In this document: piece after piece, positions 662 to 51,832 of the stretch
Layout of the letters: each line of letters opens with the position of its first letter
How positions within the stretch are numbered: position 1 is the first letter of the stretch
From: Alphaproteobacteria bacterium
GTDB taxonomy: Bacteria > Pseudomonadota > Alphaproteobacteria > Micavibrionales > Micavibrionaceae
Direction: 5' to 3'
Length of the DNA stretch: 64,000 bases
NCBI GenBank assembly: GCA_020443075.1
Contig: JAGRIU010000034.1
Span: 23,421 to 87,420, forward strand
Notes under the pieces: generated by a model
The model's input: the letters and a program-made list of their open reading frames with translations, nothing else
The model's database searches: none
Told to the model about the DNA's origin: nothing
Made by a program: the position numbers and the translations under genes

Positions 662-1366
662 ATGAAACAAACGCTAAAATCACAATCCGGTAACGTTCTT
701 TGGTTTATTCTGATCGCCGTTGTCTTGCTCGGCGCACTGACCATGGTACTCTCGCGCGGCGGCTCCAATATTGATCAAACCGGCGATGTCGAGCAAAGCC
801 GCATTCTGGCCAGCCAGATTCTGCGCTATGCCAAAGGCGTCGAAACCGCGATTGAGAAAATGAAGCTGCAAGGCGTATCGGAAAACGATATCAGCTTCGA
901 AAATTCCACCACGACCACCGACTACACAAACGCCAATTGCACGGATACGGCGTGCCGCTTGTTCGATGTCGGCGGGGCCGGACTGGAATATAAAAATTTC
1001 TCATCCGCCAATGACGGCAGCGACTGGATTTTTACCGGCGCCAATAATGTCGGTACGGCCGCAGGCCCGGTCGGCACCACCGCATCCTCTTCAGGGAACG
1101 ACCTCATCATGCTGCTGCCCAACGCCAAAACGGCCCTATGCAAGCAAATAAACCGCGATCTGGGCGTCGGCACGGCAGGCACCTTGCCCACCGAAACTAC
1201 AGGCATCGTCACCATTGCCTTTGCCGGCAGCTATGCGGGCGGCGCGCCGACAATTCTGGACGGGGACCCCACGCCGTTCGAACTCGATAAACAACCCGCC
1301 GGATGCTTCATCGATGCCAGCGATTCCAATAAGGTTTATTTCTACTACGTTGTCTTGGCGCGTTAG
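662..1366 (+). CDS. Pilin-like protein, orphan paralog of the subunit encoded at 40989-41744
   Basis: ATG at 662 gives MKQTLKSQSG|NVLWFILIAVVLLGAL: a short charged leader, Gly, then a hydrophobic helix. It shares internal blocks with 40989-41744 (W[IV]F.G, GN[DE][LV]I..LP, C..IN..L) and the C-terminal Y[FY]Y.V[VL][LV].R. The upstream M at 626 overlaps the aminotransferase end and is unlikely. Confidence 0.6.
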   Translation: MKQTLKSQSGNVLWFILIAVVLLGALTMVLSRGGSNIDQTGDVEQSRILASQILRYAKGVETAIEKMKLQGVSENDISFENSTTTTDYTNANCTDTACRLFDVGGAGLEYKNFSSANDGSDWIFTGANNVGTAAGPVGTTASSSGNDLIMLLPNAKTALCKQINRDLGVGTAGTLPTETTGIVTIAFAGSYAGGAPTILDGDPTPFELDKQPAGCFIDASDSNKVYFYYVVLAR

Positions 1367-29260: not shown

Positions 29261-29384
29261 TTTAGCAAGGTCTTTGATACATTAAGCGTTTACCGACTAA
29301 CCGGTACATTGCAAATCAAAAATGGTAAACTGACCAACCCTAGTTTAGAATGGGAGGACTTGAACCACGGACAGGAGAAATAAG

Positions 29385-29618
29385 ATGGGGGCGACTATCG
29401 AAATAGTAGTTTCGTTAATTTTATTTCTTCTCCTCTTCGGTATTCTCGGTGCATTCATCTGTGGGATCTATTATAAAAAAAAACAGCAACCGTTTCTTCA
29501 TGGTTTATTTTTGGGGGGGGTACACAGGCCTTTTAGCAGGTATCATATCAATAGGTATTTTTTTTGTTTCATGGTTTGTATTTTGAAAAATTCTTCATTT
29601 CCCCCAATTTATCCGTAA
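29385..29618 (+). CDS. Small hydrophobic protein; the frame may be disturbed at a G8 tract
   Basis: MGATIEIVVSLILFLLLFGILGAFICGIYYKKKQQ is a clean TM helix followed by a basic stop-transfer. After the G8 tract at 29513-29520, a second TM helix (YTGLLAGIISIGIFFVSWFVF*) is encoded in the +1 frame. Confidence 0.3.
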   Translation: MGATIEIVVSLILFLLLFGILGAFICGIYYKKKQQPFLHGLFLGGVHRPFSRYHINRYFFCFMVCILKNSSFPPIYP

Positions 29619-29678
29619 ATCATATCTGCTCCCGCGTTTTAATTCTTTCAAAAAACGTAAAGAACAAAAATAGCGACA

Positions 29679-38159: not shown

Positions 38160-38248
38160 TGTACTATTTCCCTTCTTTTCAAAGAATACAATTGATATGA
38201 TAAACAGCGTCGCTTTTGCAAGTCTCTTTATCCAAAAACCTAATATTC

Positions 38249-40210
38249 ATGCCTAAATCCAAACCGCCATCCATTGCCGAACTACAGCAAAAAATCGCCG
38301 CCGCCGATGCGCTGGCGGAGCAAAAATCGAATTTTCTCGCCACGATGAGCCATGAAATCCGCACGCCGATGCAAACCATCTACGGCCTGTTGGAACTCAT
38401 CGCCGATGAAAAGCCCTCACAAAGCATTACCGAAATGGTCACCACCGCGCAGGGCGCGGCCAGCGGCTTGCTGGAAATCCTCGATGACGTGCTGGATCTG
38501 GCGAAAATGGACGCCGATAAAATGGAGCTTGATGCCTTCGAGGTTCCTGTGCGCCTGCTGGTGCGCGGCTTGCTCGAAGCCTTGGCGGTCAAAGTCCACG
38601 GCGTGGATATCGAGTTGATCGACGACATTGAAAAAGATGTTCCTTTCGTTGTGGTCGGCGATCCCAAGCGCCTGCGCCAGATCATTATGAATCTGTGCGG
38701 CAATGCGCTGAAATTCACCCATGAAGGCCGCGTCACCGTGCGCGTCACCACAAAAATTCAGGCCATTAAAGCGCCAAAAGACGGCGTAGGGCTTCGTTTC
38801 GAAGTCATCGACACCGGCATCGGCATGAATAAAGAAACCTGCGCGCGGCTTTTTGAATCCTTTTCCCAAGCCGATAATTCGACGCAGCGCAAATATGGCG
38901 GCACGGGGCTGGGCCTGTCCATTTCCAAAAAACTCGTCGAGCTTATGGACGGGCGGATCGGCGTAGACAGCGAGGAAGGCAAAGGCTCGACCTTCTGGTT
39001 CGAAATCCCCACCCGCGAGGTCAGCGCCGATGAAAGCACGGTCGAACTTCCCAAGCTCGACGGTATCTCCGTGCTCTCGGTCGAAGACCACCCGCAAGGC
39101 GCCAAGGAAATTGTCAATTCCCTGCGCTCGATGGGCGCCAGCGTCGAAAGCTGCCCGACTTATAAGGAAGGCTTGGAGCTGGCCCGCCGCCGCCCCTTTG
39201 ACGTTGCCGTGATTGATCAGGGGCTACCCGACGGGCTGGGGCTGGATTTGATCAAAGAGCTGATTGATATCCGCCCGCACATGGGCCTTGTCATGTACAC
39301 GGTGCGCGAGGATGTCGGTCTGGCGCATTCTTTGAAAGCGCTGGGCGCAACCTATCTCACCAAACCGGCCAGCCGCAAAGGCTTGGGCGAAGCCGTGCAG
39401 GACTGCGCACAAAAATCTTTGTCGATGGATATTAGCGGTCCGACAAAAATGCTCATCGCCGAAGATACGGAGAGCGTGCGTGATATCCTTAAGCGCCAGC
39501 TTGATAAACTGGGCGTAGAGGCCAGCTTCGCCGGCAATGGCAAGGAAGCCTTGAAAGCTCTTAAAGGTGGAGAATATGGTATTTTGCTCACGGACCTGCA
39601 CATGCCGGAAATGGACGGTTATGCGCTGGTCGAGGCGATCCGCACGCAGGAAAAAAGCGCAGGAAAGCATTTCCCCGTCATCGTCCTGACCGCCGATGTG
39701 CAAATGGCCCAGCGCGAAACCTATCTGCGCCATGGCTTTGATGAATGTTTGCTCAAGCCTGTGAGCTTAGGCCAGTTCCAGCGCTTGCTGATGCGCTGGG
39801 GGCTTTTGAAACAAGAGCCGCAAATCGCAGAGCATCCTAAGACAGAAAAATCCGCCGTAGAGGAAAACGGCGCGGCCATTGACCGTCAGGCGATTATTGA
39901 TCAGATGGGCGCATTGGATGAGATGGCGATAGACATGCTGGGCATGTTCGTAGAGATGACCGCGCCTTTGATTGAGCAAATAGCCGCCGCTCATGACGCG
40001 CAGGACTGGTCGGCACTGGCTGAGGCCGCACACAGCCTCAAAGGCAGCGCCCGCTCGGCCTGTTGCCTTGCCCTTGGCGATGCGGCGGCAAAGCTGCAAG
40101 ATACCGCAGAAAAAGGCCCTGCCAAAGCTGGCCTTATTGATAAGATCAAAACAGAATTTAAAAACGTCGAAGAAGATCTGCCTGTTTTGAAGGCACAGGC
40201 AGAGCGCTAG
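38249..40210 (+). CDS. Soluble hybrid histidine kinase: HisKA-HATPase-REC-REC-Hpt
   Basis: H-box FLATMSHEIRTPM, G2 box GGTGLGLSISKKLVELMDG, two receiver domains (DVAVIDQGLPDGLG and ILLTDLHMPEMDG) and Hpt (AAHSLKGSARS). No TM or sensor domain lies before the H-box. The ORF is also open from 38216. Confidence 0.85.
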   Translation: MPKSKPPSIAELQQKIAAADALAEQKSNFLATMSHEIRTPMQTIYGLLELIADEKPSQSITEMVTTAQGAASGLLEILDDVLDLAKMDADKMELDAFEVPVRLLVRGLLEALAVKVHGVDIELIDDIEKDVPFVVVGDPKRLRQIIMNLCGNALKFTHEGRVTVRVTTKIQAIKAPKDGVGLRFEVIDTGIGMNKETCARLFESFSQADNSTQRKYGGTGLGLSISKKLVELMDGRIGVDSEEGKGSTFWFEIPTREVSADESTVELPKLDGISVLSVEDHPQGAKEIVNSLRSMGASVESCPTYKEGLELARRRPFDVAVIDQGLPDGLGLDLIKELIDIRPHMGLVMYTVREDVGLAHSLKALGATYLTKPASRKGLGEAVQDCAQKSLSMDISGPTKMLIAEDTESVRDILKRQLDKLGVEASFAGNGKEALKALKGGEYGILLTDLHMPEMDGYALVEAIRTQEKSAGKHFPVIVLTADVQMAQRETYLRHGFDECLLKPVSLGQFQRLLMRWGLLKQEPQIAEHPKTEKSAVEENGAAIDRQAIIDQMGALDEMAIDMLGMFVEMTAPLIEQIAAAHDAQDWSALAEAAHSLKGSARSACCLALGDAAAKLQDTAEKGPAKAGLIDKIKTEFKNVEEDLPVLKAQAER

Positions 40211-40219: not shown

Positions 40220-40969
40220 CTAGCTGTCACATCCGTCAGCCGTATCTTGGTGCTGTCCGGCAGGCGATTTGGTCAAGACCCAGACGCGGAAACATAGATT
40301 CCCGGCCGGACATGTTGTTTCCGCCGTACCCGCATCATCCAGATTCACCGCACCGCCGCTCGCATCAATGACATCGGTCTCACAGGCGGAAAACTCCGCA
40401 TCCAGCTTGCTCAAGGCAGAAGCGAGAAAAGAGTCCGATTTGGTCGTGCGCGTCCAGAAATAGATCCCGTCCTGCCCGTTATAATATTGCCAGTCTTCAA
40501 AGAGGTCCGGCGGCGGCGGTAAAAACTTACCCGATTTGCCTGAAAAAATTTTGGCATGATCCGTCACATTCGCACCGTCTTGATGACCGGGGCAGCGTAT
40601 ATCTTTCACCAACCGTCCTGCGGTCTTGCCAATCACAGCCGCAGGCGGCCCGTCATAATGGGTAGAGCTGGGCTTAATCGGATAACGATCATCCGCGCTG
40701 GGATCACTGCCGCCGCCCGATGTATCAATTGTGCTATCCCCGCCCGGATATTTCAAAATGCATTCCTGGATGGCCGAGCGTATAATATTGACCTGTCCTT
40801 GCAGCCCTGCAACAGATTTGAAACTGTTTTGTGAAGAGGTTTGCTGCGAAGAGTTGTCCATGAAACTCAGCGTTAAAGCGGCCAGCAGCGCAATCGCGAT
40901 CAGGATATAAACAAGCGCGCTTCCGGCTTCGGAGGCGCGCTTAGCATAAGGTGTAAAAGACGGTTTCAT
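40220..40969 (-). CDS. Pilin-like protein 2 (about 250 aa) of the type IV filament-like cluster
   Basis: ATG at 40969 gives MKPSFTPYAKRASEAG|SALVYILIAIALLAALTLSF: a charged leader, Gly, then a hydrophobic helix. Several Cys lie in the C-terminal half. The track start at 41089 would overlap the upstream gene by 100 nt. Confidence 0.6.
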   Translation of the reverse strand: MKPSFTPYAKRASEAGSALVYILIAIALLAALTLSFMDNSSQQTSSQNSFKSVAGLQGQVNIIRSAIQECILKYPGGDSTIDTSGGGSDPSADDRYPIKPSSTHYDGPPAAVIGKTAGRLVKDIRCPGHQDGANVTDHAKIFSGKSGKFLPPPPDLFEDWQYYNGQDGIYFWTRTTKSDSFLASALSKLDAEFSACETDVIDASGGAVNLDDAGTAETTCPAGNLCFRVWVLTKSPAGQHQDTADGCDS

Positions 40970-40988
40970 CGCAACCAAAGGCCTTGCC

Positions 40989-41744
40989 TTAACGCTCGAC
41001 CAGAACGTGATAATACACGTAATCGCCGCTCCCGCCACCGTTACGGAAACAGCCGAAGGCTTCGCCGTCGAACAGGGCGCTGGTTTCATCGCCGCCCGTC
41101 CCCAAAATCAGGTCGCCCGCAGAGGCCATCGTCAACTCACCGCTGACTTTGCCGTGCATATAACCGATTGTTGTGGCATTGCCGGCGCGGCTGGCCGAAA
41201 GTGTAGGTGTTGTCCCGAAGCTTAACTCGCTATTAATCCGGTCGCAAATCGACGACTTAATGCCCGGCAAAAAAGCAATGACTTCATTACCGGCTGTTGC
41301 CTCGTTACTGCTGGTCCCGAGATTGACGACTTCAAAATCGCCGTTAAAAACCCACGTGCCGGGATTGCCGCTAGCCATAACATCAGCCGGGGCCGGTGCA
41401 AAGGTAGCCCCGCCGCCGCTCGGGTGAAAAACACAATCTGTAGGCGTAGCATTACAGGTTGTTGCAAAGGCCGATGGAGGATCAAAGTTGAGATCTGCCG
41501 GATCAACACCGCTACTAACCATCATACGGATAATCGCCGTGCGAACGGAAGCCGGATATTGAGTAATAGTCGCGCTACTGATCAGATTTGTCTCACTGCT
41601 GGCATCCCCGCCGCCTGAACGCGAAGACTGCGTCACGGCATAGGACAAAGCCGCAAAAAGTGCGACGGCGATCAAAATCAGAAACAAGACGTTCCCGCTT
41701 TCTTTCGAACGTGAAGCCGGAAGATGGGCCGGAATTTCAAACAT
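40989..41744 (-). CDS. Pilin-like protein 1 (251 aa) of the type IV filament-like cluster
   Basis: MFEIPAHLPASRSKESG|NVLFLILIAVALFAALSYAV: a 17-aa charged leader ending in Gly, then about 20 hydrophobic residues. It has Cys pairs and is paralogous to 662-1366. Confidence 0.65.
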   Translation of the reverse strand: MFEIPAHLPASRSKESGNVLFLILIAVALFAALSYAVTQSSRSGGGDASSETNLISSATITQYPASVRTAIIRMMVSSGVDPADLNFDPPSAFATTCNATPTDCVFHPSGGGATFAPAPADVMASGNPGTWVFNGDFEVVNLGTSSNEATAGNEVIAFLPGIKSSICDRINSELSFGTTPTLSASRAGNATTIGYMHGKVSGELTMASAGDLILGTGGDETSALFDGEAFGCFRNGGGSGDYVYYHVLVER

Positions 41745-41805
41745 TAAATCTCTCCATATTATTCAAACAACAACCACAAACTTATCCTTACGCCGACCAA
41801 GTATA

Positions 41806-42357
41806 TCACCCTGGCGTATTGACGGAAACCTTATTTATCCTCAAAGAGGCGGCCAGCGGATATTTATCGCACTCGCGCCCGACGCATAGTCTTTCAATGC
41901 TGACACGCCAGCCCGACCCTCCGTTTTGGATATGCCCGATGGCTTCGCGAAACTGGCCAAAGGCCGCTGTCGTGCTCGCAGTAATCAAAACGGTCGAACC
42001 GCTGGCCTTGATATCCAGCCCGGTATAAACATCCTTGGCATTTTTGACGAAATTTTCAACTTCCGCGCCGTTGACGGCCATATCCTGAATTTGTGGCACG
42101 GCCGGCTTCAAAGCGCTGCCTTCGGCCAATTTAGTTCTTAAAGCCGTGAGTTCCTGAAGCTGAACGGTTGTATAAAGCCCAGTGGCGGCCGCGGTGGCCC
42201 AAACGGCTCCCAAAATGATCAGCATCGTTTTATTGGTGTTTTGCGGAAGTTTCTCCAAAAAAACATTGAGATCATCAGCTACGCGAGGGTTGGCGAGCTT
42301 TTTAAAAGAACGCCAGTTAATCCCACTTGCCATTTTTTTGAACGCTGCAAAATCCAA
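41806..42357 (-). CDS. Bitopic assembly protein, GspM/PilO-like by architecture
   Basis: About 45 aa cytoplasmic, one TM (MLIILGAVWATAAATGLYTTV), a coiled-coil segment, then an approximately 100-aa periplasmic domain. Called from position in the cluster only. The start is uncertain (TTG 42357 or ATG 42333). Confidence 0.4.
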   Translation of the reverse strand: MDFAAFKKMASGINWRSFKKLANPRVADDLNVFLEKLPQNTNKTMLIILGAVWATAAATGLYTTVQLQELTALRTKLAEGSALKPAVPQIQDMAVNGAEVENFVKNAKDVYTGLDIKASGSTVLITASTTAAFGQFREAIGHIQNGGSGWRVSIERLCVGRECDKYPLAASLRINKVSVNTPG

Positions 42358-42438
42358 AACTTAAATCCGATCTTGTTTAAGGTATGAAACCGAACCCCTG
42401 CACTCGATTATACCTCATTTTATTATACTTTCCAGATG

Positions 42439-42454
42439 TTAAAGGGCCTTTAAC
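42439..42454. promoter_or_regulatory. CtrA-box-like motif TTAA-N7-TTAAC inside a 21-bp perfect palindrome
   Basis: TTAAagggcctTTAAC at 42439-42454, embedded in atgttaaagggcctttaacat (42436-42456). It lies in the 148-nt AT-rich gap about 80-100 nt upstream of 41806-42357 and the pilin genes. Confidence 0.45.
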
Positions 42455-42505
42455 ATATTGATATATTTTAAGTATGGCTTGGGCCTATCCTTTTGATACG
42501 AAAAC

Positions 42506-43495
42506 TTATCTGTTGCCGATGACACGAATACGTTCATCTTTCGAACGATCCTTTTCATCGACCCGCACACCGTATTTTTTGATAACGGTTTGTACGAAGG
42601 CAGGCGGCACCAGAGCTTCCCATTCGACACGGTCGCCTGTGACCTCATAGCGTACAAGCGTACTGTCCAGTTTGCTTAAACCATCCAGAATTTCCTGAAT
42701 TCGTACCATATGCTTGATGGTGTTGCTCTGCATCGCGTTATAAGCATTGAGCATCAAATCATTCGCGGCCTTGTCTGTCTCACGTTTAACCGTATCCAGA
42801 TCCCGCTTAATGAAATTAATGCTGATATAATTGAAGATGAGAATACTTAAAGCAATCCCGGCCACGGCTAAACCGGTAAAAATAAGCATGCGCACGGTCG
42901 CGCGTGAAAGCTTTTCCGTTTTGAGCGTCCGGTTTTGCCAAGGGATAATATCGGCGACCTCGGTATTGATCGTCACAAAATTGGCATCCATACTCTGAAC
43001 GCGCGGCAAGATCGTCCGCGACGCGCCCAGAAAAACCTGCATCCGCCCCGTTTCCGGGTCCCAGCGCAAAGCCGAAGCCAAACCTTCTTGTTCATACAAG
43101 TAAACGGTTTCTTTATCCCAATGCTCGCTATTGCCCGGCAGCGCCGCCGCCAACGGGCACCAGCTATCCGGATTCGAGGACAAAGATGCCGAAGGACAGG
43201 CCAGATACCAGATCCGTCCACCGTCAATCGAATACACATAATGAACTTTTTCTGTGCCGCAGGCCTGAGAAGCAGCATTCCAGACAGCTTCGTCTTCGGT
43301 CCCCGATACGTGGGGGATGACCCCGCCGACAATATCCTGCGGCAGATAAGGCTGAAGATCGCGAACATAATTTTTGGCCTCTCCGGCAAGCATATCGGAA
43401 AGGCCGGGCATGGGCCGCGCCGCCTGCGCGCTCTTTCGCTGTTCCATAAAGCGGCCGCGCTCTAAAGCTTTTTGATCATCCTTCGTAGTCGCCAC
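42506..43495 (-). CDS. Bitopic assembly protein, GspL / PilM-PilN-fusion-like by architecture
   Basis: About 210-aa cytoplasmic domain, one TM (MLIFTGLAVAGIALSILIF), and an approximately 100-aa periplasmic coiled-coil/ferredoxin-like tail. GTG start with a good RBS (aaggaagg). It directly follows the platform gene. Confidence 0.5.
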   Translation of the reverse strand: MATTKDDQKALERGRFMEQRKSAQAARPMPGLSDMLAGEAKNYVRDLQPYLPQDIVGGVIPHVSGTEDEAVWNAASQACGTEKVHYVYSIDGGRIWYLACPSASLSSNPDSWCPLAAALPGNSEHWDKETVYLYEQEGLASALRWDPETGRMQVFLGASRTILPRVQSMDANFVTINTEVADIIPWQNRTLKTEKLSRATVRMLIFTGLAVAGIALSILIFNYISINFIKRDLDTVKRETDKAANDLMLNAYNAMQSNTIKHMVRIQEILDGLSKLDSTLVRYEVTGDRVEWEALVPPAFVQTVIKKYGVRVDEKDRSKDERIRVIGNR

Positions 43496-43509
43496 GTGTT
43501 AAGCCTTCC

Positions 43510-44730
43510 TTATACTGCCCCTTGCATCAAGCCGCCCATCATAGAATCCATACTCATATTCATCACGGTCAAGGCGTAGATGGCGCTTCCGAACGCAATG
43601 GCCAGAAAAACCCCGGTAATAGCAAACGCAATCCATACGATCATCGAGTGCTTGGACTTTGCCGCATGCGAACGCATTTCGGCGATAGACTCCATAACTG
43701 TAGCAACTTGTCCCAGGTCAGACAAGGCCGCAAGCTCTAAACGTTCATTCCGGCGCAGCGGCGCACGGTCAAGTGCCGACCCCAGTGTCATCCCGCGGCT
43801 CAGATCAGCCAGCGTATCCAACCAATATTGCGTCACATCCGGCGCTGCTGACGCTTCGGCCGATTGTTCCAATGTTGTGTTAATCGGCACAAGGCCGCGC
43901 AGCATCCGTGCCGCTGCCGACATCGAATCGGCAAAGGCCAGATCGCGCAAATAACCACCGATTAACGGAATTTTTCGCACCAAGCGCGCGGTCGGCCAGT
44001 CTTTTTTGCCGCGATTGATCCAGTAGGAAAAAATACACCAGCACATAAAAGCGCCCGTAGCCACGGAAAGATAGATCAATATATCCCACGTCAGCCCCAG
44101 ACGATTGACCACCAAAGTGAACTTCTCAAGTTCGTCCGGATCACTGGGAGGATTGTCACGAAACCATTTTAAAACCATATCCTTCCCCGCCCACAAAGAC
44201 GTCACAATCGAAAACACGTCAAAGCCGAGCCAACCCATTGTCCCCATAATCGCGCGCGTATTTTTGCGCTTCTGCGTAATCGACTGGATTGCGTGTGGAA
44301 TGCCTTCAATCAAACGGTTTGCGCGTTCGCTACCGGCCAGAATCGCCAGTGTTCCGTGATCGAAGATATTCAGCGCCTTAAGTGCATCAATGACCCCCAG
44401 ACCTCGGGCCAGCGCTTCCCGAGCGGGAGCAAGAATATTTTGCCTGCGCGGGTTGGTTTCGGCCTGAATGATTTTCCACAGCGCCACGCCCGGCGATGTC
44501 GAACCGGAGCGAAACTGGATACCGCGCAAAAGCTGGACCTGCCACCATGTCGAACGCGCCAAGAGCCGCTCAAGCGGTGAACGTTCATAGGGGCGGATAC
44601 TTAAAACATAACCACCTTTCTTGGAAATGACCTCGCGTACGTCATCGGCGGTGGGCAGGTAAAATGTCTCGGTCGCTTTTTTAGCGCCGGAAGTTGTATC
44701 ATAAGCAATTTCAGCAATCCATTGCTGCAT
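43510..44730 (-). CDS. Type IV filament platform protein (GspF/PilC family)
   Basis: 406 aa with two repeated T2SSF-like halves (IPLIGGYLRDLAFADSMSAAARMLRGLVP...) and three TM segments. Lies next to the ATPase. Confidence 0.75.
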   Translation of the reverse strand: MQQWIAEIAYDTTSGAKKATETFYLPTADDVREVISKKGGYVLSIRPYERSPLERLLARSTWWQVQLLRGIQFRSGSTSPGVALWKIIQAETNPRRQNILAPAREALARGLGVIDALKALNIFDHGTLAILAGSERANRLIEGIPHAIQSITQKRKNTRAIMGTMGWLGFDVFSIVTSLWAGKDMVLKWFRDNPPSDPDELEKFTLVVNRLGLTWDILIYLSVATGAFMCWCIFSYWINRGKKDWPTARLVRKIPLIGGYLRDLAFADSMSAAARMLRGLVPINTTLEQSAEASAAPDVTQYWLDTLADLSRGMTLGSALDRAPLRRNERLELAALSDLGQVATVMESIAEMRSHAAKSKHSMIVWIAFAITGVFLAIAFGSAIYALTVMNMSMDSMMGGLMQGAV

Positions 44731-44742
44731 AGGACAGGGGCC

Positions 44743-46512
44743 TTATTCTTCCAGATAAGACAGGGCGGCTTTCGGATCGACCAGCCCGCTCAAAACCAGA
44801 TCGACCAGTCCCTCGCGGCGTGTATGGACAATCACCCCGTCTTCTTTGATCACATGGTTAACGTTATGAAGCAGAGCCTCATAAATCTCATTTCTCTGGG
44901 CCGGACCGACAGTAATTAAAAGTGCATCCAAAAGAAGTGTTCGCCCGGAAATCCCGGTACGGTTACATAGGTCACAACCCGATGTATTGTGACGGCGGAT
45001 CTTGGCTTCAGGCTCAATCTTCAGGTGGGCGAGCTCGTCCGGACTCAGAATTTTCCCGGCCATATCCTTATGAGAGCAACCCTGACACAGGGTTCGGACC
45101 AGACGTTGGTTCAAAATACAGCGCACCTGCTGCGCCAGTGTATAGGTCGAGGAACGCTCGCGCGTATGCGGCATCAAAGAGCGCAAGCGCTCAAAAGTTT
45201 GCAGCGCCGTATCGGCGTGGATAGTCGAAATCACGGTATGCCCGGATTCGGCAGCCTTCAGCGCTGTTTCCACCGTATCACCATCGCGCATCTCCCCGAT
45301 GATAATATAGTCCGGGTCATGACGCATCGAGGCACGGATCAAGTCAGCGAATTCCCCACCCGGCATCCCGGGGCGCACCTGCCATTGCGTGGCATAGCGC
45401 AACTCATATTCGATCGGGTCTTCGATCGTCAGGACATGTCTGCGCCGCCGGTCGATCTCTTGAATACAGGCATACAGCGTCGTGGTTTTACCGGAACCCG
45501 TCGGACCGGAGAGCAGGATCAAACCGCCGCCGCCCTTAATCTCGGGAGAAAGCAGTTTGGCCAGATATTCCCCGACATCCTTGTGGCGGCGGAAAAGCTC
45601 GTCAAAGCCTTTCAGGGCCGCGCGGTCAAGCAAACGCAGCGTTAGCTTTTCCCCGTCTTGGGCCTGCGGGCCGGCGGCCACACGCACGTCAATGGCGCGG
45701 CCTTGCCAGGTAAAACCAAACCGCCCGTCTTTAGGCGTGGTTCTGTCCCCGAAGTTCAGCCCGGCATCGCGCTTGAGCAAAGTCGTCAAACGTGCCATCG
45801 CATCGGGCGGCAGCAAATGCATCGGAATCATATCCCCGTCAATCCGGTACTGGATCCAGTTCGGCGCTTCGGGGTTGTTATCTTGCACAAGGTGAATATC
45901 CGAGGCGCGCATTTGCAGGGCTTCGGCCAGCATATCGCGCTGGAACTGGTTGAGCAGCAAACCGTTATCACTGTCGTTTAACCACAAGGCCAGCGTCTTC
46001 TCGCAGCGATCAGCCGAAAGATCGTGCACAGAGCGCAGCGTATCGATCAGTTCCTTACGGTCCCAGATTTCCGATTCCACGCGTTCGACGTGAAAGCCGC
46101 TTCGGCTGGCCGTGGAAATCAGCGTTTCAATCTGGCGCTCGTTAAGCTCTTGCAAGGGCGCAATGCGCAAAACCCCGTCGCTCAGACCGATCAGGTGAAT
46201 ACTTAAAGGCAACCAGGCTTGCACGGGTAAAATCGCGCGCAGCTGGTCTCCGGTCGCGCGGTCCTTAATTCCCTCGTCTTCAATATCGGAAGGTAAAACG
46301 GCCCCGGCCATATCCAAAAGCTGCTCGGTCGAGCGGGAAATACCCTGATCAAGCATCATCGATCGTTCGCGCTGGACCATATCCAGATAACGTTCGCGCC
46401 CCTCATGGGCGCGCCGCACACGTTCAGAAGCAGAGTGACGGCGCTCTACACCGCTTGGCGGCCCGCTGTCTTTCCTACGTTTTTCGGTATCTTGAGAGTC
46501 TTGACTGGCCAT
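44743..46512 (-). CDS. Type IV filament assembly ATPase (GspE/PilB family)
   Basis: Walker A LSGPTGSGKTTT, Asp box, Walker B YIIIGEMRD, His box GHTVISTIHA, and a tetracysteine motif CQGC...CDLC. Confidence 0.95.
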   Translation of the reverse strand: MASQDSQDTEKRRKDSGPPSGVERRHSASERVRRAHEGRERYLDMVQRERSMMLDQGISRSTEQLLDMAGAVLPSDIEDEGIKDRATGDQLRAILPVQAWLPLSIHLIGLSDGVLRIAPLQELNERQIETLISTASRSGFHVERVESEIWDRKELIDTLRSVHDLSADRCEKTLALWLNDSDNGLLLNQFQRDMLAEALQMRASDIHLVQDNNPEAPNWIQYRIDGDMIPMHLLPPDAMARLTTLLKRDAGLNFGDRTTPKDGRFGFTWQGRAIDVRVAAGPQAQDGEKLTLRLLDRAALKGFDELFRRHKDVGEYLAKLLSPEIKGGGGLILLSGPTGSGKTTTLYACIQEIDRRRRHVLTIEDPIEYELRYATQWQVRPGMPGGEFADLIRASMRHDPDYIIIGEMRDGDTVETALKAAESGHTVISTIHADTALQTFERLRSLMPHTRERSSTYTLAQQVRCILNQRLVRTLCQGCSHKDMAGKILSPDELAHLKIEPEAKIRRHNTSGCDLCNRTGISGRTLLLDALLITVGPAQRNEIYEALLHNVNHVIKEDGVIVHTRREGLVDLVLSGLVDPKAALSYLEE

Positions 46513-46515
46513 ATT

Positions 46516-48135
46516 CTACTGAACACTGCTTTCCGCGTCCCCGCCGCTAGAGCTGTTTGTCGAAGACGAGGCGACAACCCGGTTAATAGAGGATAAAGAA
46601 CGGTCAAACAGCAACAAAACACGGTGTTTTTTATGCACAAATTCAATGCCGTCGGCCTTAATCAGGGTCATCCAGGGCACACCGCCCAGAACGCTCTCTT
46701 CATTGTGAAAGACAATGCGGCTACCGCCGGGTCCGTTGATAATGGCCCGCGTTGGCGAAAACGAAGTGATTTTATAACCATCCAGCGTGCCGACCGGATT
46801 GGATGTGGCTCCGGTGCTACCGTTATAAGCCAAAGCCGCATTACGCGCCGCAGCTTCTTGTTGACTTGAGGGGACGCCGGCTTGCTGTGCGCTCTGCGAA
46901 GGCTCTGGCGTTTCGTCCGAGGAGAGGATAACCGCCGAGGGGTCGGACAAGACGATGGCTTTTTGATCCTGACTGACCGTTGAAACGGCGGATCCGCGCA
47001 CGGGCAAAACCAACACGCCGCGCGCGCCGTCATGGAGAATCTGGATATCGTCCAAAAGCTCGCCGACACGCGTTGGCGACCATGAAATTGTGAGCGGACA
47101 AGCTTCGATCGGTTCCAAAATATCCCCGCCGGCGCAGCCTTCGGTTTTATAGCTCACGCCGTTGTCCGATCCTGAAACTTTTATATCTTCGATCGTCAAG
47201 GGCGCATCGCCCGAATTAACCAAAGAGACGGTAATCGTGGATGTTGTGTTGATATCGCCGCCGAAATCGACTTCTTTCTGCGAAGACACCAGCAGACCTT
47301 TACCCGGTACGGCTTGCGGGAAGGTTTCGGCTTCATTCACAGCTTCGGGAGCGTATTCGCCCTTTAAGGGGACGCTGGACAGACCTGCCGGACCGCTATG
47401 TTTGGCAACTAAAACACCCGATGACCGCCCTTTGAGCTTCGGCGACCACGTCACGGTGGCGATGCACGATTGCCCGGCGGCAAGCTCCTCGCACTCCCCT
47501 TTCAGGGAATAACCGGCCTGCTCGCTGGCATCAATATACAGATTGCTAATCTTGATAGGCGTAGAAGTGACATTTCTCAAAATGATAGGCTCAACAAGCG
47601 TTTGGCTGCTGCTCAAAGATCCGAAATCAAGCTCGGACGGGATCATCTCGATATCGCTGGTCAGGTTTTCGCCAGCCCCTTCGGCCGCTTCAACCGATCC
47701 GGAAATCGTAGAAGTGACAAGGCGGCTGCGTCCATTATGCGACATCAGCATCTCAATCCGCCAGGGCCCGGGCTGCAAACCTTTAACAGAAAGCGCAATC
47801 GCACATTCAGCGCCGGAGGGCAGGGGTTCTTCCTCACACTGGTTCAAGGAAACGGCGCTGGAAACAGTGGACGACGGGTAAAGCCGGATCGTCCCCGTTT
47901 CCACAGGACGGCCGCCGTCATTTTTAAATAACAGGACGACCTGCGCGGTGGCGCCGATCGGAATTGTGCCGCCGTCCACTTGCGGAGCAACGGGCGCAAG
48001 CCCTTCCCCGGTTGCGCCCGAAGAGCGCGCGCCGGGATCATCGAGTCCGGGATATTGCGCAAGCGTCGAAGAAGTCAGCGCTAAAGCACTGAAGAAAAGA
48101 CAACCCGCATATAAAATCTTGTAACGCGAACGCAT
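46516..48135 (-). CDS. Secreted protein with three Ig-like (ASH/choice-of-anchor-D-like) repeats and a C-terminal PilP/GspC-HR-like domain
   Basis: Signal peptide MRSRYKILYAGCLFFSALALTSSTLAQ (ATG 48135). Three repeats follow the pattern (L/V)DFG...(I/V).L.N....P(I/L).I......C..L..G..C.(I/A).V.WSP. The C-terminus LDGYKITSFSPTRAIINGPGGSRIVFHNEESVLGGVPWMTLIKADGIEF resembles PilP-type beta domains. Confidence 0.55.
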   Translation of the reverse strand: MRSRYKILYAGCLFFSALALTSSTLAQYPGLDDPGARSSGATGEGLAPVAPQVDGGTIPIGATAQVVLLFKNDGGRPVETGTIRLYPSSTVSSAVSLNQCEEEPLPSGAECAIALSVKGLQPGPWRIEMLMSHNGRSRLVTSTISGSVEAAEGAGENLTSDIEMIPSELDFGSLSSSQTLVEPIILRNVTSTPIKISNLYIDASEQAGYSLKGECEELAAGQSCIATVTWSPKLKGRSSGVLVAKHSGPAGLSSVPLKGEYAPEAVNEAETFPQAVPGKGLLVSSQKEVDFGGDINTTSTITVSLVNSGDAPLTIEDIKVSGSDNGVSYKTEGCAGGDILEPIEACPLTISWSPTRVGELLDDIQILHDGARGVLVLPVRGSAVSTVSQDQKAIVLSDPSAVILSSDETPEPSQSAQQAGVPSSQQEAAARNAALAYNGSTGATSNPVGTLDGYKITSFSPTRAIINGPGGSRIVFHNEESVLGGVPWMTLIKADGIEFVHKKHRVLLLFDRSLSSINRVVASSSTNSSSGGDAESSVQ

Positions 48136-48301
48136 GATGATGTCGATGGTTTGAGTGATCCGGAAAGGACAAAAGGCAAATTTACTCTGCCGAGTGTAAC
48201 ACAAAAATTATCCACAGGATAATGGAAAGTGGCCCTTTGTAAGGCAAAAACCTTTTTTTAAGAAAAAACGGCCATGAAAAAGCGCAGAAATAAAGAAAAC
48301 T

Positions 48302-49831
48302 TTATTCCACAGAACCCGCCGGATTGAGAAGATCCGCAGGAAGGCTGCTGCCGGTTGTGCCGGTATATTCGAAATCAGGCAACTCGCCATTGTTACGGCC
48401 GTTCATATTATGGCTCGGATCTCCTTCCGAGGTATAGACAATAACCCGCGGTTTAAGCAGGAACACAAGCTCGGTATTGGAAATGGATGTGGAACGTGAA
48501 CTTGGGAAGAGTGGCTCATTAAAGCCTGGACCAGCTTTATCATATTGGTCGTTTTCACGCACCAATCCGGCAATCAGGAGTGAATCACCCGGGCGAATGC
48601 GAATCTGCGTTGACAACTCGCGCTCTGTTGTTTCGGGAAGCTGTAAAATCGTCCCGTCGGCTTCGAAATCCTGAAAACGTCGGAATTCTTGAAGGTTGAT
48701 ACCAATATTGCCGTAAACGGTCGATTTATCCCACGCACTGGAAATCGTCAGCGTAAAACCGGTATCCACAGAGTCGGTTTCGGTGGACACTGTTGTTTCT
48801 CCGTTTTCGATCGTCCGGCTGAGCGAGGATACGTAGTTCACCGTATCGGCCACGCGCAATGTCGCTTCGGCCCCGGATAAAACGGTAATTTGCGGCTGGG
48901 AAATCGTTTTGACCGAACCGTAATCGGAAATAAACTGCAGAACATTCGAAGTATCAAAGTTGGTATCGCCTAGAGCACTCGGCAACCCTATACTAACTGG
49001 CGTGTTGGATGTGGTGCCGATGCTGCCGGGCAAGCTGATGGCCGCGCCGCCGATCTTGCCGAACTGGCTCCAGTCAATCCCCATATTATTATCCGAATTC
49101 AAACCCACTTCCCAGATATAAACTTCGAAAACAATCAACGCCGTATTGGAGCGAATACGCTGGAAATAACGCTCGGCCAGATCAGCCGTACGGCTGGTGG
49201 CATCATATATAATCGTGCGCGTGCCTTCTTCGGTGATAGGCGTGGTTCCGGTAATGGCTTGCAGGCCCTTGGCCAAAGACGCCAGAATATCGGTATCGCC
49301 GCCCACTGGCGGGACGCTGACGGTAAAGGTTTGCCTGTCTTTAACCACCAACAGGCCGTCTTCAAACGAACAATATAAATCCGCAAGCCCGCAAACCTTA
49401 CTGACAACACGGTCAAGCGGCCCGCGCAAGTTGGCCACGGTGATCGTGCGCGTGAGCCCTTGCTCGGTTTCAAAGGCCAACGGAATTTGATAATCCGCTA
49501 AAATCAGTTGTAACGCCCCGGCCAACGTTTCTCCGCGCAACTCAAACGGCCCGACAACGGCGTTGGGCAAACCGGTGCCGCCCTCAGCCTCGGGAACCAG
49601 CACATCGCTGCCCAAAGGCAGGTACAAAACACTGTCGGGTTTTTCGTTAATGGCTTCGGGGCGCGGATCAGCCATCGTCGGGGAGGGAATATGGGCGTTG
49701 CGGGCTTTAGGTGTTTTCACGTCCGCACAGCTGCCAAGCAGAAAACACAAGCAAAGGCCAAGAACCGAAACGGGACGAAGCACGCTGCGTTTTGGAGATA
49801 GGCCTGGCATTCCATCAATCCTGAATCTCAT
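48302..49831 (-). CDS. Secretin-family outer-membrane channel, probable lipoprotein
   Basis: C-terminal secretin blocks (ISQPQITVLSGAEATLRVADTVNYVS, LIAGLVREND, NTELVFLLKPRVI). Lipobox-like CFLLGS|C near the N-terminus. The ATG overlaps the upstream receiver stop (ATGA). Confidence 0.85.
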   Translation of the reverse strand: MRFRIDGMPGLSPKRSVLRPVSVLGLCLCFLLGSCADVKTPKARNAHIPSPTMADPRPEAINEKPDSVLYLPLGSDVLVPEAEGGTGLPNAVVGPFELRGETLAGALQLILADYQIPLAFETEQGLTRTITVANLRGPLDRVVSKVCGLADLYCSFEDGLLVVKDRQTFTVSVPPVGGDTDILASLAKGLQAITGTTPITEEGTRTIIYDATSRTADLAERYFQRIRSNTALIVFEVYIWEVGLNSDNNMGIDWSQFGKIGGAAISLPGSIGTTSNTPVSIGLPSALGDTNFDTSNVLQFISDYGSVKTISQPQITVLSGAEATLRVADTVNYVSSLSRTIENGETTVSTETDSVDTGFTLTISSAWDKSTVYGNIGINLQEFRRFQDFEADGTILQLPETTERELSTQIRIRPGDSLLIAGLVRENDQYDKAGPGFNEPLFPSSRSTSISNTELVFLLKPRVIVYTSEGDPSHNMNGRNNGELPDFEYTGTTGSSLPADLLNPAGSVE

Positions 49832-50208
49832 GCGCTTTCACTCCGATGTCCGAGCGTCCGCGCCACAGTTTTTAAAAGCCGATCGCGCTGTACGGGCTTC
49901 ATTAAAACCGCCGCCACAGATAATTTGCCTGATTCGCTTAAAACATCTGAATTTTGGTCCCCGGTCACCAAAATAACCGGAGTTTTGACGCCCTCACTGC
50001 GGATCGTGCGAATAAACTCAAATCCGTCAATCGGCTCCATCCGCACGTCGACAATGGCCAGATGAATTGAAGGACTCATGTGTTCCAACGCTTCTTGTCC
50101 GTCATGACACTCCACGACCTCGTGTCCGTCATCATTCAGGAAACGCGCGATCTGCATCCGAACAAAATCATTGTCCTCTACAATCAAAATTTTTGAACCA
50201 TGGCTCAT
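49828..50208 (-). CDS. Single-domain CheY-like response regulator, first gene of the filament cluster
   Basis: KILIVEDND, the phosphoacceptor context LAIVDVRMEPIDG, VILVTGD and LMKPV are all canonical. ATG at 50208; the upstream extension to 50277 has no support. Confidence 0.85.
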   Translation of the reverse strand: MSHGSKILIVEDNDFVRMQIARFLNDDGHEVVECHDGQEALEHMSPSIHLAIVDVRMEPIDGFEFIRTIRSEGVKTPVILVTGDQNSDVLSESGKLSVAAVLMKPVQRDRLLKTVARTLGHRSESA

Positions 50209-50371
50209 GGTTAAACAGCTAGACCTTACAAGAGCGCCGCAGACAAAACATGCGGGCAGGGGGGATGGATAAGACAAAAGCGAATCAGTGCCAAAGGGCC
50301 TTGATCAGAGACCATTCTATCCCCTACGATAGCAGAAGTCTAGACCTTGGCTTTTAAGGGCCGTCATTCCC

Positions 50372-50887
50372 ATGCAAATGTTTGCCTCTATATTAGCCTG
50401 TTTTCTCCTCTGTGCCGCGCTAGCGCTTTTATACAACCTTGCACGCATTGATTTGAAAACCCGTCTTTTGCCCAATAAACTGGTTTTTCCGTTTGCACTT
50501 TTGGGCGTTCTTTTTCATGCCGTTTTATCATTCGGCCTGCTGCCGCTCTCGGCCATGATGATCGGCGCGGCCCTGGGCGGCGGGATTTTGCTGGGCATTC
50601 GGACACTGGCCAACGCGTTCTATAAACAAGACACGCTGGGCCTTGGAGATGTGAAGCTGATGGCCGCCGCAGGACTTTGGCTGGGGCCGGATGTCTTGCT
50701 CGCTTTAACATTAGGGGCAGTGGCCGGATTGTTGCACGGGCTAGGCGTTGCCTTATGGACGCATCACAAAAATAAACAGCCCGTCAATCTGGCGCGGCTG
50801 GAAATTCCAGCCGGACCGGGTTTTATTGTCGGCATCCTGATCGGCGCTGCCGTAAAATTTCAGAGCTTGCCCACGCTTTTATTTTAA
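50372..50887 (+). CDS. Prepilin peptidase, short form (A24 family, no methyltransferase domain)
   Basis: Two catalytic Asp contexts, ARIDLKTRLLPN and LGLGDVKLMAAAG. 171 aa, polytopic. Divergent from the cluster. Confidence 0.85.
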   Translation: MQMFASILACFLLCAALALLYNLARIDLKTRLLPNKLVFPFALLGVLFHAVLSFGLLPLSAMMIGAALGGGILLGIRTLANAFYKQDTLGLGDVKLMAAAGLWLGPDVLLALTLGAVAGLLHGLGVALWTHHKNKQPVNLARLEIPAGPGFIVGILIGAAVKFQSLPTLLF

Positions 50888-50926
50888 TGTTATCTCGAAT
50901 ATCGGGGCAACCAAGCAGGAGTCTGT

Positions 50927-51832
50927 ATGCAACATCTTTTGGGCATCGATGAAATCGACGCGGGCGCAATCACGGCAATTTTGGATAAAGCGCAGGACTA
51001 TGCGGATAAGCTGAAACAGGGGGAATGGGATCAAACCCGCCTGAAGGGCAAAATCATCTTGCACCTGTTTTTCGAGCACTCTACGCGCACTTTGACCTCA
51101 TTCGAGATGGCCGCCAAGCGTTTGGGCGCGGATGTGATTAACTGGAATCCTGAAACCAGCTCGTTGACAAAAGGCGAGAATTTTATCGACACCATCGACA
51201 CCCTGACCTCGATGAAACCTGATGCGATCGTCATGCGTCATGCCGAATTCGGCGCGCCGAAATTTGTCGCCACCCGTGCAAAATGTCCCGTAATCAACGG
51301 CGGGGATAGCTGGCGCGAACACCCGACGCAGGCGCTTTTGGATGCGCTGACCATGCGCCAGAATTTCGGAAAGCTGGAAGGGCTGAACGTGACCATTATC
51401 GGCGATATCGCCCATTCCCGCGTCGCCTCTTCCAATATGCAGCTCCTTACCAAAATGGGTGCGCATGTGAGCGTGGTCGCGCCGGAAATCTTGATGCCCG
51501 AAAGCCTGCCTTTCCCACAGATCAAAGCTTATCATACGCTGGAAGAAGGTTTGCCCGGTGCGGACGTGGTGATGACGCTGCGCCTGCAAAAAGAACGTAT
51601 GGACAAGGCGCTGATTTCCGATGCGGCCTATTTCAACGAATTTGGCCTGACCTTTGAGCGCCTCGAAAAATTCTGTCCCAAAGCCGTCATTATGGACCCC
51701 GGCCCGCTGGTGCGCGGTGTGCAAATGGAAGACAGCGTTGCCGAAGATCCTGAGCGGAGCCTGATCTTGCGGCAGGTCGCCAACGGCATCCCGACCCGTA
51801 TGGCCGTCCTCGATATGCTGGTGGGGGGATAG
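50927..51832 (+). CDS. pyrB: Aspartate carbamoyltransferase catalytic subunit
   Basis: FFEHSTRTLTSFEMAAKRLGA, HPTQALLD and IIGDIAHSRVA motifs. AGGAG lies 6 nt upstream of the ATG. Confidence 0.95.
   Translation: MQHLLGIDEIDAGAITAILDKAQDYADKLKQGEWDQTRLKGKIILHLFFEHSTRTLTSFEMAAKRLGADVINWNPETSSLTKGENFIDTIDTLTSMKPDAIVMRHAEFGAPKFVATRAKCPVINGGDSWREHPTQALLDALTMRQNFGKLEGLNVTIIGDIAHSRVASSNMQLLTKMGAHVSVVAPEILMPESLPFPQIKAYHTLEEGLPGADVVMTLRLQKERMDKALISDAAYFNEFGLTFERLEKFCPKAVIMDPGPLVRGVQMEDSVAEDPERSLILRQVANGIPTRMAVLDMLVGG

Follow-up and report, generated by a model that had tools for sequence, protein, structure and literature searches.

According to Denise et al. (2019, PMC6668835), a machine of the type IV filament superfamily has an assembly ATPase, a platform, an A24 peptidase and type IV pilins that carry a class III signal peptide. 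The described systems with which the present locus is compared are the type II secretion system (T2SS; Gsp/Eps/Pul), the type IVb pili (T4bP; Bfp of enteropathogenic Escherichia coli (EPEC), the R64 thin pilus and Tcp of Vibrio cholerae), the MSH pilus, the type IVa pilus (T4aP), the Tad/Flp pilus (T4cP) and the archaeal type IV pili. The T2SS pseudopilins GspG to GspK carry a glutamate at position 5 (Glu5), except for GspK, and the subunits of archaeal pili are without Glu5. The R64-type thin pili found on conjugative plasmids serve cell-cell contact. We analyzed a cluster of ten genes in a stretch of 64,000 nucleotides, here called the window (assembly GCA_020443075.1, contig JAGRIU010000034.1, positions 23,421 to 87,420), from the genome of a Micavibrio-like alphaproteobacterium. 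Very probably, the machine encoded by the cluster is functional, belongs to the type IV filament superfamily and represents a separate, so far undescribed lineage of it. We observed its part list, its conservation, its phylogenetic separateness, a signal-peptide-like pattern in its subunits and its expression in Micavibrio aeruginosavorus.

Nine tightly packed co-directional genes occupy positions 40220 to 50277 of the minus strand, as read from the open reading frames (ORFs), and the tenth gene is divergent. A first-pass annotation, made from the sequence alone, had reported the same ten genes in this arrangement. The features are as follows, together with a neighboring kinase gene and a distant paralogue of the subunit genes:

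50372..50887, plus strand: short A24 prepilin peptidase, 171 aa (Pfam Peptidase_A24, 9e-18, residues 15-123)
49828..50208, minus strand: single-domain CheY-like receiver, 126 aa from MSHGSK (Pfam Response_reg, 1.8e-23)
48302..49831, minus strand: outer-membrane lipoprotein secretin, 509 aa (Pfam Secretin, 1.2e-17; lipobox LLGSC)
46516..48138, minus strand: exported periplasmic Ig-repeat protein, 540 aa from ATG (ASH, HYDIN_VesB and choice-of-anchor-D matches)
44743..46512, minus strand: GspE/PilB-type assembly ATPase, 589 aa (Pfam T2SSE, 1e-78)
43510..44730, minus strand: inner-membrane platform, 406 aa, a very divergent GspF/PilC relative (T2SSF, 6.6e-6)
42506..43495, minus strand: bitopic protein of GspL/PilN-type architecture, 329 aa (no family match in Pfam or NCBIfam)
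41806..42357, minus strand: bitopic protein of GspM/PilO-type architecture, 183 aa (no family match in Pfam or NCBIfam, no PDB match)
40989..41744, minus strand: Pil1, pilin-like subunit type A, 251 aa (no family match; N-terminal pattern)
40220..40969, minus strand: Pil2, pilin-like subunit type B, 249 aa (no family match; N-terminal pattern)
38216..40210, plus strand: hybrid histidine kinase, HisKA-HATPase-REC-REC-HPt (Pfam domains), convergent with the operon
662..1366, plus strand: stand-alone third pilin-like paralogue, 234 aa (motif scan; no Pfam match)

The stop codon of the receiver gene and the start codon of the secretin gene overlap in ATGA, as read directly in the sequence, which bears out the coupling described in the first-pass annotation. 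Most intergenic gaps measure 3-19 nt; wider gaps follow the secretin gene (about 100-160 nt) and precede the 183-aa gene (about 150 nt) and Pil1 (about 60 nt). The receiver ORF extends to 50277, and a start at 50208 is supported because the median length of the orthologs is 127 aa. For the Ig-repeat protein, a possible alternative TTG start lies upstream at 48204 and would give 562 aa. The start first proposed for Pil2, 41089, was incorrect; the gene starts at 40969.

With regard to superfamily membership, the locus contains an ATPase of the PilB/GspE/TadA family, a GspF/PilC platform and an A24 peptidase, in agreement with the earlier assignment to the type IV filament superfamily. The N-terminal pattern of the subunits is the one expected of a class III signal, and their predicted topology is pilin-like, although the subunits lack Glu5, match no pilin model in Pfam and show no significant fold match. 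At the level of individual classes, all curated NCBIfam models scored far below their cut-offs. For the ATPase, the scores were 234 bits with GspE (cut-off 630), 230 bits with PilB (cut-off 676) and 67.5 bits with the TadA-family model (cut-off 373). The platform reached 22 bits (21.7) with GspF (cut-off 424). For the secretin, the top models were MshL with 93 bits (cut-off 250) and R64 PilN with 83 bits (cut-off 288), followed by GspD with 43 bits (42.8; cut-off 351) and PilQ with 13 bits (12.9; cut-off 284).

The separateness of the locus was also evident in rough, bootstrapped neighbor-joining trees, for which references were taken from annotated records of five T2SS, E. coli HofB/C/Q, EPEC Bfp and an R64-type thin-pilus operon. 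A chromosomal region of Aeromonas, misfiled as a plasmid, was considered as a reference for MshE and rejected, as it turned out to be the Exe T2SS. The ATPases of Micavibrio and of two plasmid-borne systems from Rhodoferax and Methylibium, which are described below, formed a clade with 96% bootstrap support outside GspE (100%), GspE plus HofB (85%) and BfpD plus PilQ (95%). The platforms of the same three systems grouped with 100% support, outside the GspF group, and the secretin was located on the BfpB/PilN side of the split from GspD/HofQ (86%). Nesting of the motor genes inside a characterized clade, which the first-pass annotation had named as a result that would speak against its proposal, was not seen in these trees. 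Judged by sequence comparison, the locus is a lineage apart from T2SS, T4aP, T4bP and Tad, and probably not an MSH system either, with MshE lying outside the reference set of the trees. The claim that no known class fits is thereby upheld by the class models and the trees; it does not extend to the order of the core genes, which is not unique and recurs on two betaproteobacterial plasmids. Gene order is in any case a weak criterion of class, because it also varies among bona fide T2SS (G-K, L, M, N, D, E, F in Ralstonia), and the arrangement seen here may be taken for a permutation of a T2SS or T4bP layout. Neither Micavibrio nor Rhodoferax is mentioned in the supplements of Denise et al. (2019), and our literature search gave no description of the system beyond the "T2SS lacking GspCGHK" of a genome paper from 2011.

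The ATPase, correctly recognized as GspE/PilB-type in the first-pass annotation, has an intact Walker A motif (residue 336), Asp box (364), Walker B motif (399) and His box (424), as well as a tetracysteine motif (CQGC476 and CDLC513). The best matches among PDB structures were EpsE/GspE (180 bits), PilF/PilB (150-160 bits), BfpD (89 bits) and CpaF (44 bits). The name "TadA", which NCBI assigns to this protein, is by these matches a wrong name and a routine misannotation, since GspE and PilB score far above CpaF. The N-terminal region is lineage-specific and highly conserved, and no MshEN c-di-GMP motif was found in it, either by regular expression or as a match to NF053729. The platform exceeds the Pfam T2SSF cut-off only slightly (26.5 versus 25.2 bits), which is enough to sustain its identification as a GspF/PilC relative. 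It is also matched in blastp by the platforms of Rhodoferax (2.5e-19) and Methylibium (2.9e-20), the former of which matches the GspF, ComGB and PilC models and thus bridges the Micavibrio platform to the GspF/PilC family. Its ortholog in M. aeruginosavorus ARL-13 is labeled "hypothetical". In the peptidase, both catalytic residues are present (Asp26 in RIDLK and Asp93 in GLGDVK), and Peptidase_A24 is the only domain detected by Pfam; as noted earlier, there is no N-methyltransferase domain.

The two proteins of about 250 aa were described as pilin-like in the first-pass annotation. Both are in the cluster, but they are not the only ones in the window, which contains the third paralogue at its other end. 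Pil1 has a 17-aa leader ending in Gly-1 and the mature N-terminus NVLFLILIAVALFAALSYAVT, and Pil2 has a variable leader, Gly-1 and the mature N-terminus SALVYILIAIALLAALT; both are without Glu5. In the listed orthologs of Pil2, a variable leader and a conserved Gly are followed by the near-invariant SAL(V/I)YIL(I/V)A(I/V)AL, also given as SAL(V/I)YILIAIALLAALT. The third paralogue (KSQSG/NVLWFILIAVVLLGAL) is 32% identical to Pil1 and shares with it the N-terminus and a YFYYVVLAR-type C-terminal end. Its neighbors are an aminotransferase gene fragment and polA, and the cluster lies 40 kb away.

Pil1 belongs to a large family, with more than 3400 relatives at 90% clustering, of which every named one is called "hypothetical". 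Among 1.84 billion representatives, a Pil1 profile identified 4254 clusters at the 50% identity level. Of the 148 top representatives of these clusters, 133 had an N-terminal motif that could be parsed; their leaders comprise 5-46 residues and end in Gly. The 21 residues that follow (NVLFLILIAVALFAALSYAVT) are essentially invariant, with Asn at +1 in all but one of the 133 sequences and with Leu, Ile, Met or Phe, never Glu, at +5. This family alignment corroborates the earlier statement that neither subunit in the cluster has Glu5. Leader, Gly and hydrophobic segment together form the pattern typical of a class III signal peptide, and their conservation goes far beyond the needs of a membrane anchor.

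In comparisons with known families, no match to N_methyl or pilin Pfam models was obtained among 98 members of the Pil families. Profile searches against PDB sequences gave nothing significant for Pil1 and Pil2, and hhalign comparisons with GspG/H/J, BfpA/PilS and PpdD were not significant. The exception was a weak hhalign match of Pil2 to GspK, the tip pseudopilin without Glu5 (prob 60, E 9e-5). A match to an existing pilin or pseudopilin family, which had also been named beforehand as evidence to the contrary, was thus seen only in this weak form. The AF2 model of Pil1 (pLDDT 86, pTM 0.77) consists of a hydrophobic helix (19-36), an 11-residue Gly/Ser linker, a long helix (48-78) predicted to pack on the globular domain, and a beta-sheet domain. 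In Foldseek, the top three matches of the model were all to PilA1, a type IV pilin of Clostridioides difficile. Residues 180-220 of Pil1 are hypervariable and lie between the invariant C167 and C232, which recalls the D-region of type IV pilins. The divergence of the subunits and the hypervariable loop of Pil1 form the pattern expected of surface-exposed major pilins rather than of conserved periplasmic pseudopilins. Pil1 is probably the major subunit, and for Pil2 a minor or initiating role is probable. A system in which every subunit lacks Glu5 and no methylase is present is unusual for bacteria. In this respect the locus resembles archaeal pili, and, as in these, its subunits are presumably unmethylated.

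The identification of the secretin as a lipoprotein was substantiated by the lipobox, which has the form L-x-[S/G]-C-A in nearly all full-length orthologs. The sole sequence match in PDB was to the lipoprotein secretin BfpB (1.7e-15), and no N0-N3 domains were detectable. The orthologs range from approximately 466 to 742 aa, with insertions after a conserved N-terminal lipoprotein segment, and the copy in the window is a short form. The Ig-repeat protein has a Sec-type signal peptide ending in TLA/Q, as read from the sequence, three Ig-like repeats with invariant Cys pairs and, at its C-terminus, a conserved domain of some 90 aa. The three repeats had been noted previously and are real, whereas the proposed PilP/GspC-like domain comes down to a 24-residue match to XpsN (E 0.004), and profile comparisons gave no support for an HR domain of the PilP/GspC type.

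The 329-aa protein combines a highly conserved domain in the cytoplasm with a ferredoxin-like domain in the periplasm; a single transmembrane helix and a long helix lie between the two. Its AF2 model is of moderate quality (pLDDT 67), with higher values for the C-terminal beta-beta-alpha-beta-beta domain (pLDDT 80-89). The top Foldseek match of this domain was the periplasmic domain of EpsM (prob 0.95) at a borderline E-value of 0.06, followed by PulM, PulL-PulM and PilO/PilN. Residues 60-190, in the cytoplasmic domain, are the most conserved part of the protein, and this high conservation would fit a GspL-like contact with the ATPase. The 183-aa protein has one transmembrane segment (approximately 45-66) and an invariant C158/C163 pair; its likeness to GspM/PilO is one of topology, and profile comparisons with GspM and HofN/O were not significant. 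Family profiles of the two bitopic proteins and the Ig-repeat protein matched no PDB sequence significantly. In hhalign, small alignments of GspL, GspM and GspC/N and the single sequences of HofM/N/O/P, BfpC/U/G/L and R64-type PilO2/PilP also gave no significant match, with BfpC at no better than E 0.006; these negatives are weak evidence, because the reference sequences were few. The GspL/PilMN- and GspM/PilO-like character assigned in the first-pass annotation therefore stands for the membrane architecture and one borderline match of a predicted fold, which suggest a GspL/GspM likeness, and not for detectable homology in sequence.

A Logan assembly from the same strain carries a 1-nt deletion in a T5 run (L001:3506, window position approximately 43000), which splits the 329-aa gene into two ORFs, and two mismatches in the platform gene. 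The intact 329-aa protein has no 100% match in the protein collection, and public annotations of this genome may therefore carry the gene as frameshifted.

The locus shares features with each of several pilus types. Like the T4b pili, it is a single compact operon with a lipoprotein secretin, placed on the BfpB/PilN side, and with the order secretin ... ATPase-platform; long variable prepilin leaders, a residue other than Phe at +1 and large subunits are common to both. The T4b pili also have relatives on conjugative plasmids and may lack a retraction ATPase, as in Tcp. However, the ATPase of the locus is nearer to GspE/PilB than to BfpD, its bitopic proteins are encoded after the platform and not ahead of the ATPase, its peptidase lacks a methylase domain, and its secretin remains well below the cut-off of the PilN model. 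Moreover, its subunits match neither BfpA nor PilS and lack Glu5, whereas a T4b pilin has a long leader, Glu5 and about 190 aa. The MSH pilus resembles the locus in the order secretin-X-ATPase-platform-...-pilins and in its PilB/GspE-type ATPase, and MshL is the best-scoring curated model for the secretin. It differs in that the MshL cut-off is not reached, the ATPase has no MshEN motif, homologs of MshI, J, K, M or N are missing at the locus, and MSH pilins have Glu5. The T4a pilus is distinguished by the low scores of the PilB and PilQ models and by the lack of significance in the HofM/N/O/P comparisons. The Tad pilus has in common with the locus a short A24 peptidase without a methyltransferase domain. 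In contrast to Tad, the ATPase is not of the TadA/CpaF type, a single full-length platform replaces the TadB/TadC pair, no Flp-size pilin, TadZ or RcpA is encoded, and the subunits of about 250 aa do not contain the G/XXXXEY motif.

The best plasmid matches were located on a conjugative plasmid of Rhodoferax ferrireducens T118 (NC_007901) and a conjugative megaplasmid of Methylibium petroleiphilum PM1 (NC_008826). On both plasmids, a secretin gene is followed by genes for a short exported protein, the ATPase, the platform, a protein of 307-320 aa, a protein of 154-159 aa and pilin-like proteins. Orthology was indicated by BLASTP for the secretin (4e-61 for Rhodoferax, 1e-37 for Methylibium), the ATPase (35-37% identity) and the platform (about 1e-19 to 1e-20). 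Using hhalign, it was indicated for the 329-aa protein (Rhodoferax hyp307, Methylibium hyp320; prob 97.9), the 183-aa protein (Rhodoferax hyp154, Methylibium hyp159; prob 96.1), subunit type A (prob 98.1) and subunit type B (Rhodoferax hyp180, Methylibium hyp184/238; prob 98.8). The plasmid subunits are also without Glu5, the Methylibium secretin reads as a lipoprotein, and in Rhodoferax a response regulator gene lies upstream, before the secretins. Thus, the gene order outside the textbook classes is a recurring architecture of its own.

The plasmid clusters also differ from the Micavibrio locus. Their proteins are just 20-37% identical to those of Micavibrio, they lie beside PRTRC (Rhodoferax) or integrase genes, and the +1 residue of the subunits is Phe, as compared to Asn or Ser in Micavibrio. 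Between secretin and ATPase, the plasmid clusters encode a short protein of 219-234 aa for which no relationship to the Ig-repeat protein could be detected. Methylibium has two extra small pilin-like genes of type A upstream of the secretin, and in Rhodoferax a peptidyl-prolyl isomerase gene separates the 154-aa gene from the pilin-like genes. The additional genes of the Rhodoferax plasmid, at 4635-8019 and 15893-19042, also include two tandem secretin paralogues and, after the pilin-like genes, a gene for a 1049-aa protein that is possibly an adhesin.

Such clusters are rare on plasmids: the Rhodoferax L-like protein was found on only 2 of 72,556 plasmid records, and a tblastn search with Pil1 against the 72,556 plasmids gave no match. 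ATPase matches on Methylobacterium pAMS5b and on a plasmid of Burkholderia PAMC 26561 were rejected due to their unrelated context. An 882-kb plasmid of Vibrio parahaemolyticus carries a distant cluster (10842-21940) with a lipoprotein secretin, an ATPase, a platform and three identical tandem pilin-like genes of 179 aa, whose products start with MFNLIISIIAIAL and have no obvious leader; all products but the ATPase and the platform are annotated as hypothetical.

The conservation of the locus was examined in genomes identified with two peptide patterns from the N-terminal region of the ATPase, which matched 209 species-representative genomes. The figures for synteny and identity refer to the 80 best of these, all of which are Micavibrio-like metagenome-assembled genomes. 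A single gene order was observed in all 80 loci, as far as each contig reaches: peptidase (minus), receiver, secretin, Ig-repeat protein, ATPase, platform, 329-aa protein, 183-aa protein, Pil1, Pil2, hybrid kinase (minus) and asd. The peptidase gene was syntenic in 67 related loci. Core genes flank the locus at both ends, namely sdh, asd and the hybrid kinase beyond Pil2 and pyrB, plsY, dprA and topA beyond the peptidase gene. From the invariant order of the locus and its flanks, we conclude that the Micavibrio-like lineage has inherited it vertically as a core locus and did not acquire it recently; the first-pass annotation had anticipated this in calling it chromosomally fixed. The identity to the window ranged over 75-87% for the ATPase, 69-86% for the platform, 55-75% for the 329-aa protein, 54-76% for the secretin, 41-70% for the Ig-repeat protein, 42-65% for the 183-aa protein, 44-67% for Pil2 and 40-60% for Pil1, with one partial match at 71%. 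Conservation thus drops from the motor towards the subunits, which are among the most divergent components. The ATPase of the window is identical to a protein from an alphaproteobacterial metagenome-assembled genome. Among the 120 best relatives of the ATPase listed, some of them labeled Micavibrio, the identity was 81-88%.

An assembly labeled Alcanivorax sp. (GCA_051967755.1), in which the complete locus is located on a 555-kb contig, does not speak for a wider host range, because it has the full Micavibrio-type synteny (plsY-pyrB ... asd-sdh), and the label is probably wrong. In the window, pyrB directly follows the peptidase gene (50887-50927), while most relatives have about 2 kb in between; in M. 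aeruginosavorus ARL-13 this gap is filled by a CoA-transferase III gene.

The orthologs of the cluster in M. aeruginosavorus ARL-13 are GMV_1930-1939, and all of them are transcribed according to an RNA-seq table from 2011 (Wang 2011). The expression index of the Pil1 ortholog, GMV_1931, increased 5.4-fold, from 9.9 in the attack phase to 53.8 in the attachment phase, in which no other gene of the cluster is expressed as highly (Wang 2011). The best sigma-70-like match of the region in the window (TGGAAA-16-TATAAT, 10/12; a consensus match only) is located at 42407-42434 on the minus strand, in the 148-nt gap between the genes for the 329-aa and 183-aa proteins. A role as an internal promoter of the M-Pil1-Pil2 genes is conceivable and would fit the higher expression of Pil1 in ARL-13. 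The hybrid kinase gene adjoins Pil2 in nearly every related locus that reaches that far, and this synteny suggests that the receiver and the adjacent hybrid kinase/HPt may exert phosphorelay control. ARL-13 carries two further systems, a genuine Tad locus and a T4aP-like locus that includes two PilT genes and a long peptidase, which makes the present cluster a third filament system.

The surface filament that these components could build may be pictured as follows. The pilin-like proteins would enter the inner membrane by their invariant hydrophobic N-terminus, and the short A24 peptidase would cut them after the conserved Gly without N-methylation. The zinc-finger ATPase of the GspE/PilB type would dock on both the platform and the highly conserved cytoplasmic domain of the 329-aa protein. 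In the periplasm, the ferredoxin-like domains of the two bitopic proteins would, together with the Ig-repeat protein, link this motor to the lipoprotein secretin. Type A subunits would polymerize behind a type B subunit and exit through the secretin as a surface filament that dispenses with the salt bridge between Glu5 and the N-terminal amine, in the manner of archaeal pili. The CheY-like receiver and the adjacent hybrid kinase/HPt may gate the activity of the machine.

As to function, we see about even chances that the filament serves prey recognition or stable prey contact in an obligate epibiotic predator. This reading is based on subunits that are large, multi-copy and fast-evolving, with a disulfide-bracketed hypervariable loop, on a secretin of the adhesive T4b type, on plasmid relatives located where cell-cell contact pili are expected, and on the putative major subunit being most expressed in the attachment phase. 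A dual role in filament formation and secretion, as in Tcp and CFA/III, is possible. More tentatively, the system may constitute a new family of the superfamily, which combines a GspE/PilB motor and a T4b-type lipoprotein secretin with unmethylated pilins that lack Glu5 and have a linker-broken alpha1 helix, is universal in the predatory order that includes Micavibrio, functions in prey recognition, attachment or effector delivery, and has been exchanged with conjugative plasmids of Burkholderiales.

Several points weigh against a surface filament of a separate lineage. In bacterial filaments, Glu5 is thought to neutralize the N-terminal amine of the neighboring subunit and is regarded as important for subunit docking, and subunits without it cap the filament tip (PMC10191384). 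Its absence from every subunit could mean that these do not polymerize in the conventional way. The Gly/Ser linker breaks the predicted alpha1 helix of Pil1, and the fold matches to pilins are not significant (E 0.2-0.7). The closest characterized matches of the ATPase, among both curated models and PDB structures, are GspE proteins. The cluster lacks a PilT-like retraction ATPase, as first reported, the PilT genes of ARL-13 being in the separate T4aP-like locus. The trees include few references, with neither MshE nor TcpT among them. The increase in expression in the attachment phase is common to most housekeeping and secretion genes of the same data set, and ARL-13 has no canonical T2SS; its authors assumed a T2SS lacking GspC, G, H and K (Wang 2011). 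Cleavage, polymerization, surface exposure, regulation and the role in predation are inferred.

The main rival explanation is a highly divergent T2SS-like system, in which a short periplasmic pseudopilus would drive hydrolases or toxins exported by Sec or Tat out through the secretin and so provide the predator with extracellular digestive enzymes. The T2SS of the 2011 authors is probably the present cluster, and ARL-13 encodes many secreted hydrolases (Wang 2011). Like a T2SS, the locus has a GspE-like motor with a zinc-binding tetracysteine motif, a single two-domain platform and no retraction ATPase. Two bitopic proteins of the L/M type follow the platform, one with an EpsM/PulM-like predicted periplasmic fold, the gene for the exported multidomain protein adjoins the secretin gene, where a T2SS would have GspC, and Pil2 is faintly GspK-like. 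The order of T2SS genes, as noted, varies in itself. However, all curated Gsp models fail widely, there is no GspG-J set, and none of the profile comparisons with GspC, GspL, GspM and GspG-J reached significance. The secretin, a lipoprotein of the BfpB/PilN type, has no recognizable N0-N3 domains, no GspC HR or PDZ domain is detectable, and the short peptidase has no methylase domain. The mature subunits of approximately 230 aa are hypervariable and multi-copy, as compared to the small and highly conserved GspG, and relatives are found on conjugative plasmids. We consider a T2SS-like system less likely than a surface filament, though not to be disregarded.

A less probable explanation is that the 250-aa proteins are membrane-anchored or secreted proteins of the periplasm or surface, acting as cargo or accessory factors, and that the true pilins are encoded elsewhere, for instance among the eight prepilin-type proteins reported for M. 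aeruginosavorus. It would account for the fact that none of them has Glu5, a pilin-family match or a significant fold match, and classical prepilin genes are present at other loci of ARL-13. Yet the 21-residue mature N-terminus is nearly invariant over hundreds of divergent sequences, following Gly and a variable basic leader, and two subunit orthogroups accompany the machine in all three lineages, with no other pilin genes nearby on the plasmids. The other prepilin genes of ARL-13 can be assigned to the T4aP-like locus with its own long peptidase. We therefore regard this explanation as improbable. Least probable is a DNA-uptake (competence) pilus, a role that type IV filaments commonly have and that is prompted by dprA two genes downstream (52682-53824), as dprA belongs to the opposite-strand housekeeping block pyrB-plsY-dprA-topA, which in ARL-13 and many relatives is separated from the peptidase gene by about 2 kb, the cluster has no ComEA- or ComEC-like gene and no retraction ATPase, and the functional link to dprA was rejected as coincidental synteny.

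Elsewhere in the window, a stretch at approximately 28100-29700, between spoT/relA and an ABC transporter gene, has a low GC content (0.42 versus about 0.53). It contains small orphan ORFs only, one of them of 148 aa, and may be foreign DNA.

The analysis defines a large unannotated protein family, with more than 4000 clusters at 50% identity. It also provides a concrete and genetically tractable candidate for the attachment to prey, and the draining of prey, by epibiotic predators: the locus is present in every relative examined, strongly conserved and expressed, with the highest expression during attachment. If the interpretation as a filament is true, bacterial machines can polymerize subunits without the salt bridge between Glu5 and the N-terminus and without N-methylation. 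It would also add a lineage to the superfamily that the census of 2019 held to be unlikely among systems with the three key components.

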